Shown piece after piece: positions 11,910 through 19,331 of a stretch of DNA of 64,000 bases. The notes below the pieces were generated by a model. The model worked only from the letters and a program-made list of their open reading frames with translations. It did not search any database and was not told the origin of the DNA. Source of the DNA: Escherichia phage HMD-9; sequence record PV287714.1; one strand, 5' to 3'. How positions within the stretch are numbered: position 1 is the first letter of the stretch; every line of letters begins with the position of its first letter. The translations under genes and the position numbers were made by a program.

Positions 11910-12125
11910 TTACCCCAGTTTGACCATACAATCGCCGTATTTCCATTTAGAAATAGACTTTTCACCATTAGAATAATAAACTTCGAGTTTAGCACGATTA
12001 TTTTTAATTTGAATAACCTTTGCTGTCATCAAAGTTCCATACCCGTAATAAACTGCAACCTCATCACCTACATATACCGCGCTTCCGCGGTAGTCATGGA
12101 TATAATCAGTTCCTTCAAGCATCAT
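11910..12125 (-). CDS. hypothetical protein
   Basis: ORF track 71 aa; ATGA overlap with nrdC stop. Confidence 0.5.
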   Translation of the reverse strand: MMLEGTDYIHDYRGSAVYVGDEVAVYYGYGTLMTAKVIQIKNNRAKLEVYYSNGEKSISKWKYGDCMVKLG

Positions 12126-12385
12126 TTAAAGTATTCCCGCAATTGGTCAAATCCACCAATATGACTTCCATCAGGAGCAAATACCTGAGGCATCGTCAAA
12201 CCAATTTGAGTATCACGACCAAGTTTAGTCAGAAGCTCAGCGATTTTCTCATCATCAAAAACACCTTTTTCTGGCATAATGTTGATAAATTCAAACGGCT
12301 GTTTCTTCACAGTCAAGAGACGTTTTGCATTATCGCAATACACACATTTATGGATGTTGCTATCATAACCATATACTTTAAACAT
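12122..12385 (-). CDS. nrdC: phage thioredoxin/glutaredoxin
   Basis: 87 aa; CVYC redox motif; matches recalled T4 NrdC. Confidence 0.88.
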   Translation of the reverse strand: MFKVYGYDSNIHKCVYCDNAKRLLTVKKQPFEFINIMPEKGVFDDEKIAELLTKLGRDTQIGLTMPQVFAPDGSHIGGFDQLREYFK

Positions 12386-12386
12386 A

Positions 12387-12629
12387 TTATTCCTTAATTC
12401 CTAGTACTTGTTTAAAAGTCTCGTCGTAATCAAGACTTTGGCCCGTTTGTTCTTTATGTTTGTATATAATATCACTTACTTCTGATAGCATATTTTTATA
12501 TGAACGAGTTAAAGCAGATTTAAGCACACTATATCTATCAGGAAATTTACCATGTTCATTATAATAAGCTATTGCTAATTCACGGACTGCCTTTTCAGCA
12601 GTCTCCATATATTCTTTACGCTTTGTCAT
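12387..12629 (-). CDS. hypothetical protein
   Basis: ORF track 80 aa. Confidence 0.5.
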
Positions 12630-12698
12630 TTTCTTCTCGGTTAAATCGGTGTTTGCAATGACGGCATTTATAACGAAGATTACTAGTCTGCCAATGGA

Positions 12699-12932
12699 CT
12701 AATTGAACCTGTTCAGTACCGCATTTTGGACAGTTCGGAACATTCTTAGAAGACCTTTCGCGACGTTCAACCATAGCCATAATAGCATCCAAGCAGGAGG
12801 TTTAAAGTCTAGATCGTCACAACCATGAATCTTTCCGCGCATTTCTAGATCGTCTTCTTCACCAGCCATAATAATTTTAATTAGACTGGAATTACTTGAA
12901 GCTGCAATATCTTCTAATAAACGCTTTTTCAT
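12699..12932 (-). CDS. hypothetical protein
   Basis: ORF track 77 aa; ATGA overlap with upstream gene. Confidence 0.4.
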   Translation of the reverse strand: MKKRLLEDIAASSNSSLIKIIMAGEEDDLEMRGKIHGCDDLDFKPPAWMLLWLWLNVAKGLLRMFRTVQNAVLNRFN

Positions 12933-13855
12933 TTCAGTACCTCAATAGCATCACGTAAACCATTTGCTTTTGCATTAAGAGCTTTTAACAATTTGGTATG
13001 TTCGGCAATCTGGGCTTCAACTTCAATCAAACGGGCACTGAGATATTCGCGTTCTTCTTTCATAGTATCATTCCCATGATTAGGCTTTGGCGTAGGTTTA
13101 AATTTACTAGGGTCCTTTAACTTAATAACAACTTTAGTTTCAAACAGTGAAAGACCATAATTCGTATTATCGTCAAAGGATTCAACTACGTCCATTTTAG
13201 ACAATAACGTACGAAGATTATAAGTCAAAGAACGAATCGTTTTATTATGTTTATTAGCTTCACGCGGTTTCATATATGGAAGATTTTTATATATTTCATG
13301 CGGAGCACAAACAATAATTGACAATTCAAATGGTCCATTCTGTGATGATGGAATAAATTTAGCCGTAACCCAATCTTTTACATTTACATTAATAGTACGG
13401 TCATCGCCATGACAAAACAGTCTACGAGAATGCTTAAAAAGCATATTCACATTATTATTAAATTCATGTGAAAACTCACTAGCAAATTTTTCTTTACTAT
13501 TTTTAGAAAACCATTCTTCTAAATAAGTTCTTTTCACGTCATTAATAATATTAAATGTAACAACATTAGCATTTGATACATTAGTCTCAATGTAGCTTGG
13601 ATACATAAATTTTTTAACATTATTAACAGCTATTACAGAAGATAGTAATCGGGAACGTTTGAACCACTCTAGCAAAGAACCAAGAGAATGTGAATATGCA
13701 TTTTGTGTATCTTTACAAATATGGTTTTCCCATCCAATATAGTCTAAAAAATCACGAAGAATATTATTGATTACTGCTCTATGTCCTATCTGATAATTAC
13801 GATGTTTAGTAATAAGACTGTCAAAATAATCAATATAATGTTTACGAGTTTTCAT
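12929..13855 (-). CDS. paralog family member 1: globular N-domain, KP-rich linker, C-terminal coiled coil
   Basis: 308 aa; shared core motif (SLTYNLRTLLSKMDVV) and C-terminal heptad segment with the three neighbouring genes. Confidence 0.6.
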   Translation of the reverse strand: MKTRKHYIDYFDSLITKHRNYQIGHRAVINNILRDFLDYIGWENHICKDTQNAYSHSLGSLLEWFKRSRLLSSVIAVNNVKKFMYPSYIETNVSNANVVTFNIINDVKRTYLEEWFSKNSKEKFASEFSHEFNNNVNMLFKHSRRLFCHGDDRTINVNVKDWVTAKFIPSSQNGPFELSIIVCAPHEIYKNLPYMKPREANKHNKTIRSLTYNLRTLLSKMDVVESFDDNTNYGLSLFETKVVIKLKDPSKFKPTPKPNHGNDTMKEEREYLSARLIEVEAQIAEHTKLLKALNAKANGLRDAIEVLK

Positions 13856-13907
13856 GTTCTTCTCACTTGGTTAATGATTTATACTCCGAGCCATCCTTGG
13901 CTTTAAA

Positions 13908-14909
13908 TTACTTAATTAACTGTAAAGCTTGTTCAAGACGATCCAGACGATTAACAGATTCTTCCCAAATCCTTTTAGCCTGCTCATATTCTTTCTGCGC
14001 TTTATTAGAAATTTCTAGAACTTCTTTATAAGCCTTTTCTAGTGCAATAACTTCTGGACGAATTTCTACAGGTTCAGGCGAATCATCAAGATTATCCATT
14101 AGTTCCTCAAGTGTAATTTCTTCTTTAGGAGTATTCACAATTTCATCACATTTTTGTTGGTAAATTTCTTTATCAGTCGGTGAGTACGCACATTTCACTT
14201 CACGAAGACTAACTACAATTTTATATCCTTCCCAACCGCATATATTCTTAAAAGGATACGTATGAATATTTTCTACTGTTTCCATACAAAGTAATGCGGT
14301 TTCTAATTGACGAGTTATAGTGCTAGCAATTGAGAAAAATTTATTAATGTTCTTTTGGTTAGTTTCTGGTGTAAAAAATCCATAATTCACAAAAATAGAT
14401 ACTTTATTTTTATCAAGTTCATATTCTTTTATGATAATCATATCAGAAGCCAAAGGATGAATTTGACGATAATCGCCATAACATAATTTAGAAGCTGATT
14501 TTAGAATCTGTCCTTTGAAAAGTCTGAAATTACTAATCCAACGACGAGTAAAAATATTCTCAGGGTCTTCTTTATTATTAAGATGATAAGAATTATCATC
14601 ACCGAACCAATTATATCCTACTACATCTTTGGTTCGTTTAATTTCTTTCCCAAAATTACCAAGAATATCCCGATTAACCAAATATGAAAGAAGACGAGAC
14701 TCTTTAAAGGTTTTCTTGATAACATCTTTATCTACACGACTAGAAATTTTACGAATTTCATGAATAAATTTAGTAGAAGAAACAATACCTGCATCAACAC
14801 TATTGAGCCATTGATTGATAATAGAAATAACGCTATTTTGACCAAACATCGGTATAGCTTTATCATCAATAACACTATTGAATGATTTGATATATTCGTT
14901 ACGAGTCAT
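13908..14909 (-). CDS. paralog family member 2 (start at MTRNEY downstream of early promoter)
   Basis: ORF track frame 13908..14960; ATG 14909 preceded by AGGAG; C-terminal coiled coil. Confidence 0.6.
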   Translation of the reverse strand: MTRNEYIKSFNSVIDDKAIPMFGQNSVISIINQWLNSVDAGIVSSTKFIHEIRKISSRVDKDVIKKTFKESRLLSYLVNRDILGNFGKEIKRTKDVVGYNWFGDDNSYHLNNKEDPENIFTRRWISNFRLFKGQILKSASKLCYGDYRQIHPLASDMIIIKEYELDKNKVSIFVNYGFFTPETNQKNINKFFSIASTITRQLETALLCMETVENIHTYPFKNICGWEGYKIVVSLREVKCAYSPTDKEIYQQKCDEIVNTPKEEITLEELMDNLDDSPEPVEIRPEVIALEKAYKEVLEISNKAQKEYEQAKRIWEESVNRLDRLEQALQLIK

Positions 14910-14937
14910 ATTAATCTCCTCAGTAGAAAGTAAGAAC

Positions 14938-14967
14938 ATTATACCACATCCTTGTGGCAAAGTAAAC
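14938..14967 (-). promoter_or_regulatory. T4-type early promoter (GTTTAC-N18-TATAAT)
   Basis: Reverse complement reads GTTTACtttgccacaaggatgtggTATAAT. Confidence 0.55.
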
Positions 14968-15995
14968 TAGTTCAGTGCATTTAGTGCATTGTTCAGTTTA
15001 GAACGTTGCTTTGTCAGATTTTGAACCCTTGACTGAGCTTGTTCTAACACCTTTTCAGCTTCTAGCACTTCATTGGTCGCTTTAACGAGTTCATCATCTA
15101 CTGCCTTAAGAGACTTCTCAATCGCGTCAGCGTGCCATTTTTCTACAGGTTTAAAATTTGAATTTTCAGTAGGAAGAAAACTCACTTTATTAAGTTTACA
15201 TGCATCTATATTGCTTGAGCTATACATCCAAAATTTAGGATCGTTTGATGAGTAATTGGATAAATTTAAATTTAAGTTATCTTGCACTTCCTGCTTTTTC
15301 TCTTGCGTGACTTCGTCCTTTCTCAAAAAATCGTATTTAAATGAAACGATCATATCAAGTTCATACGTTGTTGTATGTTCCCAATTTCGCTCAAAACGAG
15401 GTAAAATCTTAGATTGAACAGCAGCAACAACATCCATATACTTAAATGCTTCTGTCAGCTGTGATTTAAGACATTCACAAATTGAAAGAGAATTTTTTGT
15501 ATTAGGTTTAAAGCTAATTCGTGCAGTTCTATTATTTTCTTTTAATGGTCTTACTTCCATCTGAAGAGTATAACCATCAAATTTCAGGTTCTTTAAGTTA
15601 ATGTCAGAACCTTTTAATCGACTAGCCGTCGACAAAATTTGCTTTAATTGTCTACGGAACAGAGCAATAAATCTCCATTCAATACGATAATGATTTGGAT
15701 TGAAAAATCCAGATGATAAATCGACCTTACTTTGACCAACGCCTTGAACAAATAGAGGATTTTTATAATCAATAGTTTTACAGAAATCGGTGAGCTGCTC
15801 ACGAGCCGTCATTTGCGTAATATACCCCGCTTTACTAAAATGACGTAACCATTCACTGCTATTCGTATACTTAAAGTGATGAATAACACGATTAACTTTA
15901 TCAGGGTCTAAATTATTTTCACACAAAAATGTCATAACATTACGAGTATAGCTGGCATTACGAACCATATCTTCAATTTGAGAACGAGTTTTCAT
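14967..15995 (-). CDS. paralog family member 3
   Basis: 342 aa; motif LSICECLKSQLTEAFKYMDVV and C-terminal coiled coil. Confidence 0.6.
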   Translation of the reverse strand: MKTRSQIEDMVRNASYTRNVMTFLCENNLDPDKVNRVIHHFKYTNSSEWLRHFSKAGYITQMTAREQLTDFCKTIDYKNPLFVQGVGQSKVDLSSGFFNPNHYRIEWRFIALFRRQLKQILSTASRLKGSDINLKNLKFDGYTLQMEVRPLKENNRTARISFKPNTKNSLSICECLKSQLTEAFKYMDVVAAVQSKILPRFERNWEHTTTYELDMIVSFKYDFLRKDEVTQEKKQEVQDNLNLNLSNYSSNDPKFWMYSSSNIDACKLNKVSFLPTENSNFKPVEKWHADAIEKSLKAVDDELVKATNEVLEAEKVLEQAQSRVQNLTKQRSKLNNALNALN

Positions 15996-16003
15996 GGTGT
16001 TCC

Positions 16004-16909
16004 TTAAGATTTAAGTAAATCAACAATTTTAATTAACTTTTCACGCTCAGATTTAGCTTTACTACTCAATCCAGATAGTCTGAAAATTTCATCGTCATAT
16101 TGTTGAATAGAAATATTCAGCTCTTCAATCTGCTTATTAAAATAATCAATTTGTTCAGAATGTTTTTCGTTACTACGAACTGGTACAGGTTTTGCAGGCA
16201 ATGTAGTTGAACTGGATTCATTCGGGCGATAAATTAAAATACAACTTGAACCAATAGGGCATTTTGCACCAGATGAATATTCTAATGTTCCAGCTTCTTT
16301 TAAAACTTCAAAAGCTAAACAGAGATGATGCCCCATATTAACATAATCTGTAGAGTGAGCTCTGATGTAATAATCATCGCCACGAATACTAAATTTAAAG
16401 CATTTAAGGTCTTCTGTATTATTGGTCTTAAAAATCATTTGTTTATCTAGACCTTTAGCTAATCGAGCGCCCAATGCTAATAATCGTCGTTGATTTTCCC
16501 ACAAATCCGCAATCATTTGATCGAATGATAATTTTGGCATCAGTCGACCATAAAGGTCATATCCTTTATTATAATTACGAAGAATTTCACTCGCATTAAT
16601 ACGAGACAACGCTCCAATTTTATTAAGGGCTTTCATAATGCGATTAGATAAACTCATTCCAGACCCATTTGTTCGCTGTAAATGTTTTTCTAATCCAAAT
16701 CCAATATCAACTTTAAACTTATCTAAAATTTCTGCATGAACATCTCTGTCAATAACATTCAAATCCAAAGTTGGGTTAAATCTATGAAAAAATTTATCTG
16801 GCTCTCCACGGCGAAATACAGTCCATTCATTCATCATTTTTTTATTAGCTAAAGATTTAATTACTGCATTGACATTATTAATTACTACTGACATATTTTC
16901 CTCACTCAA
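16004..16909 (-). CDS. paralog family member 4
   Basis: 301 aa; PAKPVPV linker then coiled-coil C-terminus. Confidence 0.6.
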   Translation of the reverse strand: MSEENMSVVINNVNAVIKSLANKKMMNEWTVFRRGEPDKFFHRFNPTLDLNVIDRDVHAEILDKFKVDIGFGLEKHLQRTNGSGMSLSNRIMKALNKIGALSRINASEILRNYNKGYDLYGRLMPKLSFDQMIADLWENQRRLLALGARLAKGLDKQMIFKTNNTEDLKCFKFSIRGDDYYIRAHSTDYVNMGHHLCLAFEVLKEAGTLEYSSGAKCPIGSSCILIYRPNESSSTTLPAKPVPVRSNEKHSEQIDYFNKQIEELNISIQQYDDEIFRLSGLSSKAKSEREKLIKIVDLLKS

Positions 16910-17303
16910 TTTTACTAATTATGCGGAATATGATTGAACAGACTATATAAGTACCACACACAGATTGAACTAATACCATTCCAAAGAACCAAACAATATT
17001 ATCAAACAATGTCTGTTTTACGTCGAAAGGACGTAAACTTACAGTAATATTATCACCTTTTTCTATTGAAGAATACATCTCTGGGAAAATATATTCACTA
17101 AATCTATAACCGTCTTTGAGTTCATATACGGCAATAAACGATAAACTAGACCCTTTTCCTTGTGTTCCTGTAATGGTATTAACTACAGTAACATCATAAT
17201 CTTTATAATGCATATAATCATTAATAGCATAATAACCGTATGCAACTACTACGCATAAACAACATATCAATAAATTCAATCTTTTAATTATCAACTGTTT
17301 CAT
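16902..17303 (-). CDS. membrane protein (N- and C-terminal TM segments)
   Basis: ORF track 133 aa; hydrophobic termini. Confidence 0.55.
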   Translation of the reverse strand: MKQLIIKRLNLLICCLCVVVAYGYYAINDYMHYKDYDVTVVNTITGTQGKGSSLSFIAVYELKDGYRFSEYIFPEMYSSIEKGDNITVSLRPFDVKQTLFDNIVWFFGMVLVQSVCGTYIVCSIIFRIISKIE

Positions 17304-17358
17304 AATAATCTCAATTAAAAGGGCTTAGAACCATTATACCATCCTTGATATAAAGCGA

Positions 17359-17886
17359 TTATGCGAGTACCGTCTTTAACCGTTCTTCAAACTTCCGAAG
17401 AGTATTTTGGCGTTCAGCTCTTTGCTTTTTGTAAGTTTCAATACGCTCTGAAATGAGAGTGTATCGTTCATTTACTGATTCTTTCATAAAATCAGGAATT
17501 TCACGAGAAGCTTTAATCTCATCAAATTTATCAATAACAGCTTGCTCTTCAGCAATTAAGTTATCATACATTAAAATATCTTTCTCGATGAACTCAATAT
17601 CTTCTTGAGTTACACGAGATAATTTAGATGCTTTATCCTTTTTGTACTGTTCGTTAGTATCACGAGACCAGTGTAATGTACGATTTTTATTCGTATTCTT
17701 GTAAATTTCTACAATACCAATTTCATCAATAATAACGATCCAATTCCAACGGGATTTGTAAATTTGTCCTCCATCAACAGTGATTTCACCTCCGATTGAG
17801 ATGTCGTTAAAGAACTTACTCTGTGCTTCAGATTTAAATTTACCATCGTTGTAATTTACCAAGTTGAAAATATCTTTAGCGTTCAT
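17359..17886 (-). CDS. hypothetical protein
   Basis: 175 aa; GGAGGA RBS and early promoter upstream. Confidence 0.6.
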   Translation of the reverse strand: MNAKDIFNLVNYNDGKFKSEAQSKFFNDISIGGEITVDGGQIYKSRWNWIVIIDEIGIVEIYKNTNKNRTLHWSRDTNEQYKKDKASKLSRVTQEDIEFIEKDILMYDNLIAEEQAVIDKFDEIKASREIPDFMKESVNERYTLISERIETYKKQRAERQNTLRKFEERLKTVLA

Positions 17887-17914
17887 TTTGTGTTCCTCCG
17901 TAGTTGATAGTTGT

Positions 17915-17944
17915 ATAGTACCACAGAGGAACAGTCTTGTAAAC
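17915..17944 (-). promoter_or_regulatory. T4-type early promoter (GTTTAC-N18-TACTAT)
   Basis: Reverse complement GTTTACaagactgttcctctgtggTACTAT; same cassette recurs at 19357 and 36100. Confidence 0.6.
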
Positions 17945-17946
17945 CA

Positions 17947-18261
17947 CTAAAAGAAACTTCTTTCACAATTTTTTCCACTGAACCATGCGCTTACCGCTTT
18001 CTTAGTCTTGGGAGCAGTGTTATCCATAAACCATTCAAAGGCAGCCTTTTTATGATTCTGGAGGGCTTCTCGGGCTTTAATCTGCTCACGGTCTATTAAC
18101 ACTAACATATGAGCCTTTCTTGTCACCATGGGCTTCTTATGATTTTTTGAATACTCCCAGTCATTTGTCCATCGCATTGTTGTTGCGAATTGAAATACAG
18201 CTTCTTTAATTTTAGTTTCGTAAATTTCACGAGCCTTTGAGTATAACATCACTACCTCCAT
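17947..18261 (-). CDS. hypothetical protein
   Basis: ORF track 104 aa. Confidence 0.5.
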   Translation of the reverse strand: MEVVMLYSKAREIYETKIKEAVFQFATTMRWTNDWEYSKNHKKPMVTRKAHMLVLIDREQIKAREALQNHKKAAFEWFMDNTAPKTKKAVSAWFSGKNCERSFF

Positions 18262-18350
18262 TCACCAGTTTAGTTCTAGTCATCTTTTTAATGGCAGTCC
18301 ATATAATCTATTTCTGAACTGCCTTTTTGTCATAGAAGTCCTCTTATGAA

Positions 18351-19331
18351 TTATTTCAGAAGAGTAACCTCAGCAATTTCTTCCCAACCGTTTTTGTCGG
18401 TCATAATAAAGTCAGCAAGATAAAGAGCAGTACGCAGTGAAACATTGCGTAAACGATTAACATTAACTTTCATCCATGATAATGCTTTATAAGTTTCTTC
18501 ACTAGAAAGACCGCGCTTTTGCATCATGTCAGTTGAAAGAATAACATCTTCAACCCTGACCATAATTTCTTCATTAGTGTGAACACCCAAATCCAAATAA
18601 ACTGAGCGGGACACTAATGCTTGTAAGTGTGGAGCAAGTTTAGTACCGCGGTCTAATTCGCGGTCAATGTCAACGTTTGTGATAAAAACAATCGTTCCTT
18701 TAAATTCAAACTCACGGTCAATGCCTTTTTCTTCTAAGTAAGAAGATGCAGTGCTCCAGCAGACTTTACGGGTCTCTCCAGTGTCCAGAGCAGCTTTTAG
18801 AAGATTAAGAATGTCCATATCAGAGAAAACATCCACATCATCAATCAAAAGGACAGAATTCTCTTCACGATTATTCCAAAGCTGTTCATAAAGACCAATA
18901 CCAGAGATTTTACCATTAATGCTTTTATATTCAATGTATCCAATATCATTTGCTTTATTTAAAGCTTTATCTAAAGAATACGTTTTACCAATACCTGCTG
19001 CGCCAGAGATAATTAATGAACGAATATTTCCATTAATAATACCGTTCGTCATCATTCCCATAACATTAAATCTTTTATTAATGCGGGTTTTCATATCTTC
19101 ATATGATTCTTTAACTTCTTCAACTTTTACACCATCATATGAAATATCTGATTTGTAAACCCAAACACCGCGACGTTTACCGTCAATTTCAACAAAAACT
19201 TTACCATCTCCTTGTGCATCTACCGGAGCATTATCTGGGAACCATTCGCCTAAGAGCTCAAAAGTTCCAGAGATTTCTTTACCGAAGTAGATACCCTTAT
19301 TGATAGTTACAGTTTTCATTTTATTCTCCAA
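18351..19331 (-). CDS. AAA+-like P-loop ATPase of unknown function
   Basis: 326 aa; Walker A GAAGIGKT, Walker B VLLIDDVD, sensor-like FITN; own early promoter. Confidence 0.65.
   Translation of the reverse strand: MENKMKTVTINKGIYFGKEISGTFELLGEWFPDNAPVDAQGDGKVFVEIDGKRRGVWVYKSDISYDGVKVEEVKESYEDMKTRINKRFNVMGMMTNGIINGNIRSLIISGAAGIGKTYSLDKALNKANDIGYIEYKSINGKISGIGLYEQLWNNREENSVLLIDDVDVFSDMDILNLLKAALDTGETRKVCWSTASSYLEEKGIDREFEFKGTIVFITNVDIDRELDRGTKLAPHLQALVSRSVYLDLGVHTNEEIMVRVEDVILSTDMMQKRGLSSEETYKALSWMKVNVNRLRNVSLRTALYLADFIMTDKNGWEEIAEVTLLK

Follow-up and report, generated by a model that had tools for sequence, protein, structure and literature searches.

The closest described counterpart of the genes considered here is nrdC.5 of phage T4, a published host-range determinant that suffices, when supplied in trans, to overcome the Dsr1 sirtuin defense of E. 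coli strain ECOR17 (Srikant et al., 2022, eLife, PMC9391042). In that study, ECOR17 could be infected again after dsr1 had been deleted, a cloned copy of dsr1 gave MG1655 protection against the clone, and the NrdC.5 phenotype was specific to hosts carrying Dsr1. The TPR sensor of Dsr1, which is shared with Avs7, is reported to recognize phage major capsid proteins (2026 preprint, PMC12803255). Here we analyze a tandem array of four genes, among them an ortholog of nrdC.5, in Escherichia phage HMD-9 (PV287714.1), within a 64,000-nucleotide stretch that we refer to as the window. The phage is a T4-like Tequatrovirus; the window is 96% identical to Tequatrovirus genomes, and the 4.2-kb array region matches 508 phage genomes, nearly all of them Tequatrovirus, at 90–96% DNA identity.

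Alignment to the annotated T4 reference assigned T4 names to the four genes, all of which lie on the minus strand, as do all array features given below. We letter them A to D: the orthologs of nrdC.3 (A, 12929–13855, 308 aa; 95% identical to T4 NrdC.3; phrog_1435, PHROG E = 5e-101), nrdC.4 (B, 13908–14909, 333 aa; phrog_1435/PF26897), nrdC.5 (C, 14967–15995, 342 aa; phrog_2351/DUF7235, PF23882) and nrdC.6 (D, 16004–16894, 296 aa; phrog_2257/PF26899). The array is flanked by nrdC.2 and nrdC on one side and by nrdC.7, nrdC.8, nrdC.9 and nrdC.10 on the other. Gene C resembles T4 NrdC.5 closely: the proteins are 93% identical, the gene occupies the same position, and the match to PF23882 is full length (401 bits, E = 4e-120, against a gathering score of 30 bits). 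NrdC.3, NrdC.4 and NrdC.6, in comparison, appear to be remote homologs of T4 NrdC.5 with the same architecture in the same slot; a Pfam scan at E ≤ 1 returned no DUF7235 match for any of the three, which are thus not members by the Pfam definition.

Two other sets of phage genes invite comparison. DSAD1, the SPbeta inhibitor of the DSR2 sirtuin defense, is a functional analog only, in that it is a phage protein silencing a NADase of the SIR2 type, one with a sensor for a late structural protein; no DSAD1-like sequence or fold was found in the array proteins. The accessory sets of T-even phages comprise the internal proteins IPI–IPIII (IPI acting against GmrSD, IPIII against an unknown ECOR17 defense) and the dmd-tifA-adfA anti-toxin island (PMC9391042). 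The array is similar to these as a cluster of dispensable host-range genes, shuffled or lost between close relatives, in a plastic region with promoter/stem-loop flanks. It differs in that NrdC.3–NrdC.6 are much larger (about 300 aa), have a distinctive head-linker-helix organization, show much greater divergence among themselves, and are presumably not packaged, no capsid-targeting sequence being known in them.

Relatedness of the four proteins and a bridging family

Pairwise BLASTP detected only NrdC.3 and NrdC.4 as relatives (23% identity over 274 residues), with the other pairs indistinguishable from noise; identity from paralog to paralog ranges from 12 to 23%. Existing classifications likewise split the array into three: phrog_1435 (PF26897) for NrdC.3 and NrdC.4, phrog_2351 (DUF7235, PF23882) for NrdC.5 and phrog_2257 (PF26899) for NrdC.6. 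We built family profiles from database homologs together with the syntenic genes of T4, RB69, JS10 and two Gapriverviruses, and compared the families profile to profile. By this approach NrdC.3 and NrdC.4 aligned over residues 2–231 (HHalign, 98% probability, E = 1.4e-13), and NrdC.4 and NrdC.5 aligned collinearly across 235 columns (84%, E = 7.6e-6), with homology setting in at about residue 50–65. The core motif that the initial annotation had quoted for several of the proteins was present and in register in this alignment, which exposed two further shared motifs.

The similarity does not depend on the helical C-termini. When the sequences were cut from the linker onward, NrdC.3–NrdC.4 remained at E = 1.7e-13 and NrdC.4–NrdC.5 at 75% probability and E = 2.5e-5, and the N-terminal 110 aa of NrdC.3 and NrdC.4 alone aligned at 93% and E = 3e-7. 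Control profiles from reversed sequences scored E = 0.15–0.7 overall and 0.26–0.5 in this tail-less set, and comparisons of the tails alone between paralogs were weak (E = 0.0008–0.23).

NrdC.6 is joined to the others by a fifth family, which we call family E (phrog_26858), consisting of PM2_092 of Pectobacterium phage PM2 and proteins of Kanagawavirus phages. The profile of family E aligned with that of NrdC.6 over 161 columns (96.8%, E = 2.5e-10), including an identical LALGAR hexapeptide, and with that of NrdC.5 over 233 columns (95.2%, E = 2.9e-8); reversed controls for family E scored about 0.5. Without tails the link to NrdC.6 persisted at 88% and E = 3e-6. Independently built PHROG and Pfam hidden Markov models (HMMs) also connected family E to the NrdC.6 family (7e-6) and the NrdC.5 family (1e-6), and NrdC.4 and NrdC.5 weakly match phrog_26858.

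Gene position agrees with these alignments. The PM2 gene lies at the nrdC.3 position, directly upstream of nrdC.2, and its BLAST-level relatives in Kanagawavirus phages occur as one gene each at the same place. In Acinetobacter phage Acj61 two adjacent family genes lie between nrdC and nrdC.10; the single Acj61 sequences were not significant against the profiles, so their link is one of fold and synteny only. Altogether, the slot between nrdC/nrdC.2 and nrdC.8–nrdC.10 holds the family in T4, RB69, JS10, two Gapriverviruses, Acj61, PM2 and four Kanagawaviruses. Using nrdC.8 as an anchor toward more distant genera failed, as it is confined to the same 741 phage records as nrdC.6.

From the chain A–B–C–E–D, the shared fold described below and the shared slot, we consider it very likely that the four proteins form one diverged family of common ancestry. 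Several results weigh against this. Direct profile comparison of NrdC.6 with NrdC.3, NrdC.4 and NrdC.5 was not significant (E = 0.009–0.2), although the best alignments were collinear and contained the same motifs, and adding DSSP secondary structure to the NrdC.4 and NrdC.6 profiles left that pair not significant (E about 0.1). Single-family HMMER searches, like BLASTP, were too insensitive beyond NrdC.3–NrdC.4 and gave weak, collinear hints. The link between NrdC.5 and family E fell to E = 8e-4 without tails, still collinear, and is the weakest in the chain. Because the direct comparisons are not significant, the membership of NrdC.6 is transitive, resting on family E, fold and synteny.

The direct comparisons of NrdC.6 and the weakened link of NrdC.5 to family E, together with the BLASTP outcome and the three separate PHROG and Pfam families, speak for an alternative in which only NrdC.3 and NrdC.4 are true paralogs, with NrdC.5 and NrdC.6 as unrelated neighbors that resemble them through convergent, low-complexity coiled-coil tails, the outcome that the initial annotation had itself named as its refutation. 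We regard this alternative as very improbable and largely refuted already, given that the tail-less NrdC.4–NrdC.5 and family E–NrdC.6 alignments stand at 2.5e-5 and 3e-6 against 0.15–0.6 for reversed profiles, that the same three core motifs are collinear in all families, and that NrdC.4 and NrdC.6 have common full-length structural neighbors in the same genomic slot. Moreover, NrdC.8, despite a helical tail of its own, scored as noise against the family profiles, and the proteins of nrdC.2, nrdC.7, nrdC.8, nrdC.9 and nrdC.10 showed no sign of being cryptic members (E = 0.03–0.65).

The description of the locus as four consecutive paralogous open reading frames (ORFs) in the initial annotation is therefore upheld, with coordinates confirmed and similarity above chance and beyond the coiled coil, as judged by tail-less E values against reversed controls. 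Its statement that the N-terminal 150–200 residues differ is wrong for NrdC.3 and NrdC.4, which are homologous from residue 2. The pattern is one of overall divergence of a single architecture and not of variable heads grafted onto a common tail.

Predicted fold, motifs and start sites

AlphaFold2 models were obtained for NrdC.4 (from 26 sequences, mean predicted local distance difference test score [pLDDT] 83) and NrdC.6 (from a 47-sequence alignment, mean pLDDT 76). Both place their elements in the same order: helices bundled at the N-terminus, then a pair of helices, two beta-hairpins with one helix between them, a linker of low confidence (pLDDT below 50 at residues 275–282 of NrdC.4 and 232–247 of NrdC.6) and a terminal helix of 48–50 residues. 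In Foldseek searches of predicted viral structures, the two models retrieved the same full-length T4-like proteins of 300–375 aa (E = 1e-8 to 5e-4), with shared neighbors from Pectobacterium PM2, Enterobacter IME523, Acinetobacter fHyAci03 and Acj61, Erwinia Cronus, Klebsiella Mineola and Yersinia fHe-Yen9-01; the NrdC.4 model additionally retrieved an NrdC.3. A common fold and element order in all four proteins is thus predicted, from the models for NrdC.4 and NrdC.6 and from the alignments for NrdC.3 and NrdC.5.

Three core motifs occupy aligned columns in the four proteins. The motif 1 helix is encoded at 13607–13666 in nrdC.3 (WFKRSRLLSSVIAVNNVKKF), 14652–14711 in nrdC.4, 15783–15842 in nrdC.5 and 16571–16630 in nrdC.6. 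Core motif 2 follows at 13400–13447 (NMLFKHSRRLFCHGDD), 14472–14510 (QILKSASKLCYGD), 15603–15641 (QILSTASRLKGSD) and 16445–16486 (RLLALGARLAKGLD), respectively. Core motif 3, the one recognized in the initial annotation, lies at 13184–13231 (SLTYNLRTLLSKMDVV), 14274–14324, 15426–15488 and 16277–16330 (HHLCLAFEVLKEAGTLEY).

A heptad scan identified a C-terminal heptad helix of at least four heptads in all four proteins. It spans residues 263–308 of NrdC.3 (12932–13069, ending in GLRDAIEVLK), 285–333 of NrdC.4 (13911–14057, RLEQALQLIK; helix 285–332 in the model), 284–342 of NrdC.5 (14970–15146, KLNNALNALN; aligned to the tails of NrdC.4 and family E) and 246–296 of NrdC.6 (16007–16159, KLIKIVDLLKS; helix 251–300 in the model, in 301-aa numbering). 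All tails, including those of PM2, Kanagawavirus and Acj61, have a common length, heptad pattern and terminal [KR]L-x-x-A-[LI]-x-x-L-K signature. The shared C-terminus reported by the initial annotation stands in these respects, but the tail is not the conserved part among paralogs, as the weak tail-only comparisons indicate. From the model and the heptad pattern, this amphipathic helix of about 45–60 residues most likely mediates coiled-coil oligomerization. The linker had been described as Lys/Pro-rich, which is clearly so only in NrdC.3; that of NrdC.6 is Pro/Ser-rich, that of NrdC.4 acidic and that of NrdC.5 Asn/Ser-rich.

Two start sites deserve mention. The ATG of nrdC.4 at 14909 is preceded by a GAGGAG Shine-Dalgarno sequence and an early promoter (see below). 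For nrdC.6, whose ORF is open to a TTG at 16909, the start is most likely the ATG at 16894, which follows a GAGGAA Shine-Dalgarno sequence and gives 296 aa as in homologs; homolog length and GAGGAA make the TTG start chosen by the initial annotation (301 aa) unlikely. nrdC.3 and nrdC.5 open with an identical 12 nt (ATGAAAACTCGT, encoding MKTR; 13844–13855 and 15984–15995), NrdC.4 begins MTR, and divergent members of the NrdC.4 and NrdC.5 families begin MTRIEYI and MITREEF. These matching start residues hint that homology may extend to the extreme N-terminus.

Searches of Pfam, NCBIfam, PADLOC and, by sequence, the PDB yielded no informative family, no solved structure, and no enzyme, defense or transmembrane signature for the four proteins; the sole match among the PADLOC defense HMMs was of NrdC.4 to BrxC (E = 0.011), of the coiled-coil type. 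ORFs nrdC.1–nrdC.11 in the window (12387–19331) are labeled "thioredoxin" in numerous phage records, a label propagated from the gene names. We reject this identity for the four proteins, which have no Pfam or NCBIfam match to thioredoxins or glutaredoxins and, in the NrdC.4 and NrdC.6 models, a topology that is not the thioredoxin fold. The true glutaredoxin of the window is nrdC (12122–12385).

Distribution, mosaicism and selection

A tblastn survey of 50,697 phage records recovered nrdC.3 in 653, nrdC.4 in 553, nrdC.5 in 530 and nrdC.6 in 741, all of them Tevenvirinae of enterobacteria. An exhaustive search of 1.84 billion representative proteins with NrdC.3 and NrdC.4 profiles found only nine proteins and, by sequence, no relatives in bacteria or farther afield, and a search for related loci with nrdC.3 returned two near-identical loci only. 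Copy number varies by genus: one in Kanagawavirus and Mosugukvirus, two in Acj61, three in Mosigvirus, Dhakavirus and Gaprivervirus, and four in Tequatrovirus.

Losses are common, and individual phages have deleted, frameshifted, split or fused members of the array. In ACG-C40 (locus L009, 5802–6213) a deletion runs from inside nrdC.5 to inside nrdC.3, and in the T2 record (L011, 4597–5536 and 6684–7574) nrdC.4 and nrdC.6 are each broken into two ORFs. In a metagenomic protein (P0112), the C-terminal half of NrdC.3 follows the middle part of NrdC.5, joined out of register at a short NKV/NV microhomology; this fusion would imply deletion of nrdC.4. In the NrdC.6 of Shigella phage Sf25 (P0114), about 80 residues over the core and linker are duplicated internally. 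The T4 reference itself (NC_000866, 9997–10066 and 10067–10894) lacks 1 nt of nrdC.6 that the window and other phages have, reading GAGCTG-ATATT in place of GAGCTGAATATT; 21 unrelated residues replace the C-terminal helix (16004–16159 in the window), which can be read in the next frame. This frameshift is a strain variant or a sequencing error in the reference, since T4 record OL964735 aligns full length. The nrdC.5 gene of RB69 (L004, 4973–5875) matches DUF7235 over positions 1–232 of the 307-position model and has an unrelated basic end in place of the coiled coil, suggestive of a truncated or frameshifted allele. Kha5h (L015, 5613–6684) has no annotated nrdC.5.

Recombination also appears to have acted within nrdC.3. 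Tequatrovirus NrdC.3 proteins fall into two allele classes, about 95% or about 63% identical to that of the window, which was compared with loci L008 and L013–L016. Between the classes, identity is 51% in the head core, 31% in the linker and 86% in the tail, and synonymous divergence (dS) is 0.26 in the tail versus 0.8–1.3 in the head (about 1.3 in its core), with a breakpoint before the C-terminal helix. This pattern indicates mosaic replacement of head and linker by recombination.

The region surrounding the array is plastic. In RB68 (L012, 9039–9758) a segE homing endonuclease gene lies between nrdC.9 and nrdC.10; in T2 (L011, 10120–10605) and ACG-C40 (L009, 1385–1870) a modB-like ADP-ribosyltransferase gene lies between nrdC.10 and nrdC.11; and in RB69 (L004, 7247–7660) nrdC.7 is found between nrdC.2 and nrdC, away from nrdC.6. 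Besides sharing its phage-record count with nrdC.6, nrdC.8 (17359–17886) is adjacent to it in most inspected genomes, with nrdC.7 between them in Tequatrovirus, and a functional pairing of the two genes is possible.

Ratios of nonsynonymous to synonymous substitution (dN/dS, Nei-Gojobori) were calculated for the window against 12 Tequatrovirus loci, by whole gene and by region. Whole-gene values were 0.12–0.33 for nrdC.3, 0.13–0.25 for nrdC.4, 0.13–0.27 for nrdC.5 and 0.06–0.15 for nrdC.6. The neighboring genes endoVII, nrdC, nrdC.1, nrdC.8, nrdC.9 and nrdC.10 gave 0–0.16, mostly below 0.1, with nrdC.8 strongly conserved at about 0.04. The array ratios are thus 3–10 times those of the neighbors, yet below 1. 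By region, the tail had the lowest ratio in nrdC.4 (0.04) and nrdC.6 (0.02), the heads ranged from 0.06 to 0.30, and the linkers were the least constrained; the sole value above 1, 1.9 in the 22-codon linker of nrdC.6, comes from too few sites. The initial annotation had proposed diversifying selection, which gene-wide ratios of 0.06–0.33 do not bear out; the array evolves under relaxed or heterogeneous constraint, and positive selection is not demonstrated. Its idea of a conserved oligomerization module with variable heads survives in part: the C-terminal helix is the most constrained region among nrdC.4 and nrdC.6 orthologs and most of the change falls in head and linker, but the heads are homologous and not different domains.

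Early expression and a possible anti-defense function

Upstream of nrdC.4 lies a sequence matching the T4 early-promoter consensus TTTACW-N17-TAYWAT (PMC4122927), with (G)TTTACT and TG-n-TATAAT (TGgTATAAT) separated by 17 nt (14938–14966). Directly upstream of it, in the 3' end of nrdC.5, is a stem-loop (CAATGCACTAAATGCACTG, 14973–14991), and a second hairpin (GCCACAaggaTGTGGT) falls within the promoter spacer. The resulting order of stem-loop, TTTACT-N17-TATAAT, Shine-Dalgarno sequence and ATG (promoter and stem-loop together 14938–14991) resembles a PeSL element; such elements have been proposed as mediators of cassette shuffling where T4-like genomes are plastic (PMC4122927). In a regional promoter scan the number of sites was not above shuffled expectation, and we use the site upstream of nrdC.4 alone because it matches the published consensus and is suitably spaced from the Shine-Dalgarno sequence and ATG. 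Upstream of nrdC.3, about 25 nt from its start, a TATAAAT (13874–13880) resembles the T4 late-promoter core TATAAATA and is preceded by an imperfect hairpin (CCAAGGATGGCTCGG).

The initial annotation had suggested a role in host range, exclusion or anti-defense. For NrdC.5 this agrees with the published activity of its 93% identical T4 counterpart against Dsr1; NrdC.3, NrdC.4 and NrdC.6, which have no assigned function, become anti-defense candidates through their shared ancestry with NrdC.5. The explanation we favor, with moderate confidence, is that a single gene in a fixed slot of Straboviridae, between nrdC.2 and nrdC.8–nrdC.10, gave rise to the four by ancient tandem duplication. Each would encode a soluble, non-enzymatic protein of about 300–340 residues, made of a helical bundle, an alpha/beta core, a flexible variable linker and the C-terminal helix. 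As early, dispensable accessory genes, they most likely provide stoichiometric neutralization of host immune proteins by direct binding, each paralog being tuned to a different target. The target of NrdC.5 would be the SIR2-type NADase Dsr1, which an early binder could occupy or lock before its trigger, the late major capsid protein, appears. Accessory status is supported by the copy number of one to four, by natural deletion, split genes and fusions, and by the dN/dS of 0.13–0.33 in nrdC.3–nrdC.5; early expression appears to be supported by the promoter upstream of nrdC.4 and by the description of nrdC.5 as an "early gene" (PMC9391042). Direct binding, oligomerization through the tail, and anti-defense roles for NrdC.3, NrdC.4 and NrdC.6 are steps that we infer.

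A number of points weigh against this explanation. Only one member has experimental support, and NrdC.5 could act on Dsr1 indirectly; the original study gives no mechanism for NrdC.5 and does not report nrdC.3, nrdC.4 or nrdC.6 among the genes tested (PMC9391042). In the searchable literature we found no test of NrdC.3, NrdC.4 or NrdC.6, no later paper on these genes, and no mention of their paralogy with NrdC.5. Oligomerization is predicted from a monomer model and the heptad pattern only. With dN/dS below 1, the codons give no positive sign of an arms race, and nrdC.6, which is far more conserved (about 0.1) and more widespread (741 records) than the other three, would fit a housekeeping role as well.

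A further reading is a role in phage physiology and not in counter-defense, in which the proteins would be scaffolds or regulators of the surrounding nucleotide-metabolism complex, or early modulators of host transcription, and rescue from Dsr1 would be an indirect effect of NAD+ or nucleotide pools or of late-gene timing. We consider such a role unlikely. The proteins have no thioredoxin or enzyme domain, the label being a carry-over of names; the genes can be dispensed with in the laboratory, natural isolates have lost or broken them, and their copy number varies from one to four; NrdC.3 and NrdC.4 have only nine relatives in 1.84 billion representative proteins, a scarcity typical of rapidly evolving genes that interact with the host; and the NrdC.5 phenotype is limited to hosts carrying Dsr1. 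Structural mimicry seems to us just as doubtful: here the core would derive from, or imitate, a tail-terminator or tail-completion fold, and the proteins would serve as early decoys that saturate sensors of late virion proteins. Fold scores to lambda gpU-like tail terminators are marginal and unaccompanied by any sequence signal; unlike tail-terminator genes, theirs are early and lie outside the tail module, and the proteins have extra N- and C-terminal modules. A more far-reaching version, which we hold to be a long shot of similar standing, would make the family an expandable set of early "sensor blockers" across Straboviridae, with a core exapted from a tail-terminator-like virion protein, each paralog occupying in advance a different host receptor that would otherwise sense a late structural protein, NrdC.5 acting on TPR sensors of the Dsr1/Avs7 type, NrdC.3, NrdC.4 and NrdC.6 acting on other Avs-like sensors, and the coiled coil giving avidity against multimeric triggers.

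As T4 ORFs, one of them with a published anti-defense function, the genes themselves were known already, and no new kind of system is demonstrated here. What appears to be new is the unification of NrdC.3–NrdC.6 and family E into one Straboviridae-wide superfamily present in one to four tandem copies, found in T4-like phages of Escherichia, Enterobacter, Edwardsiella, Pectobacterium and Acinetobacter. If this is correct, four PHROGs (1435, 2351, 2257 and 26858) and three Pfam families would merge into one. The widespread mis-annotation as "thioredoxin" is corrected as well. NrdC.5 is one of few known inhibitors of SIR2-type, NAD+-depleting defense, and T4, the most thoroughly studied phage, would gain three named and readily testable anti-defense candidates beside it. 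The conserved parts of these proteins (the three core motifs and the terminal helix with L-x-x-A-L-x-x-L-K) would become separable from the variable ones (the linker and the head surface), which would guide mutagenesis and structural work on NrdC.5 and Dsr1. Copy number in the slot may likewise mark host-defense pressure and host range, and would then be relevant to the choice of therapeutic phages.

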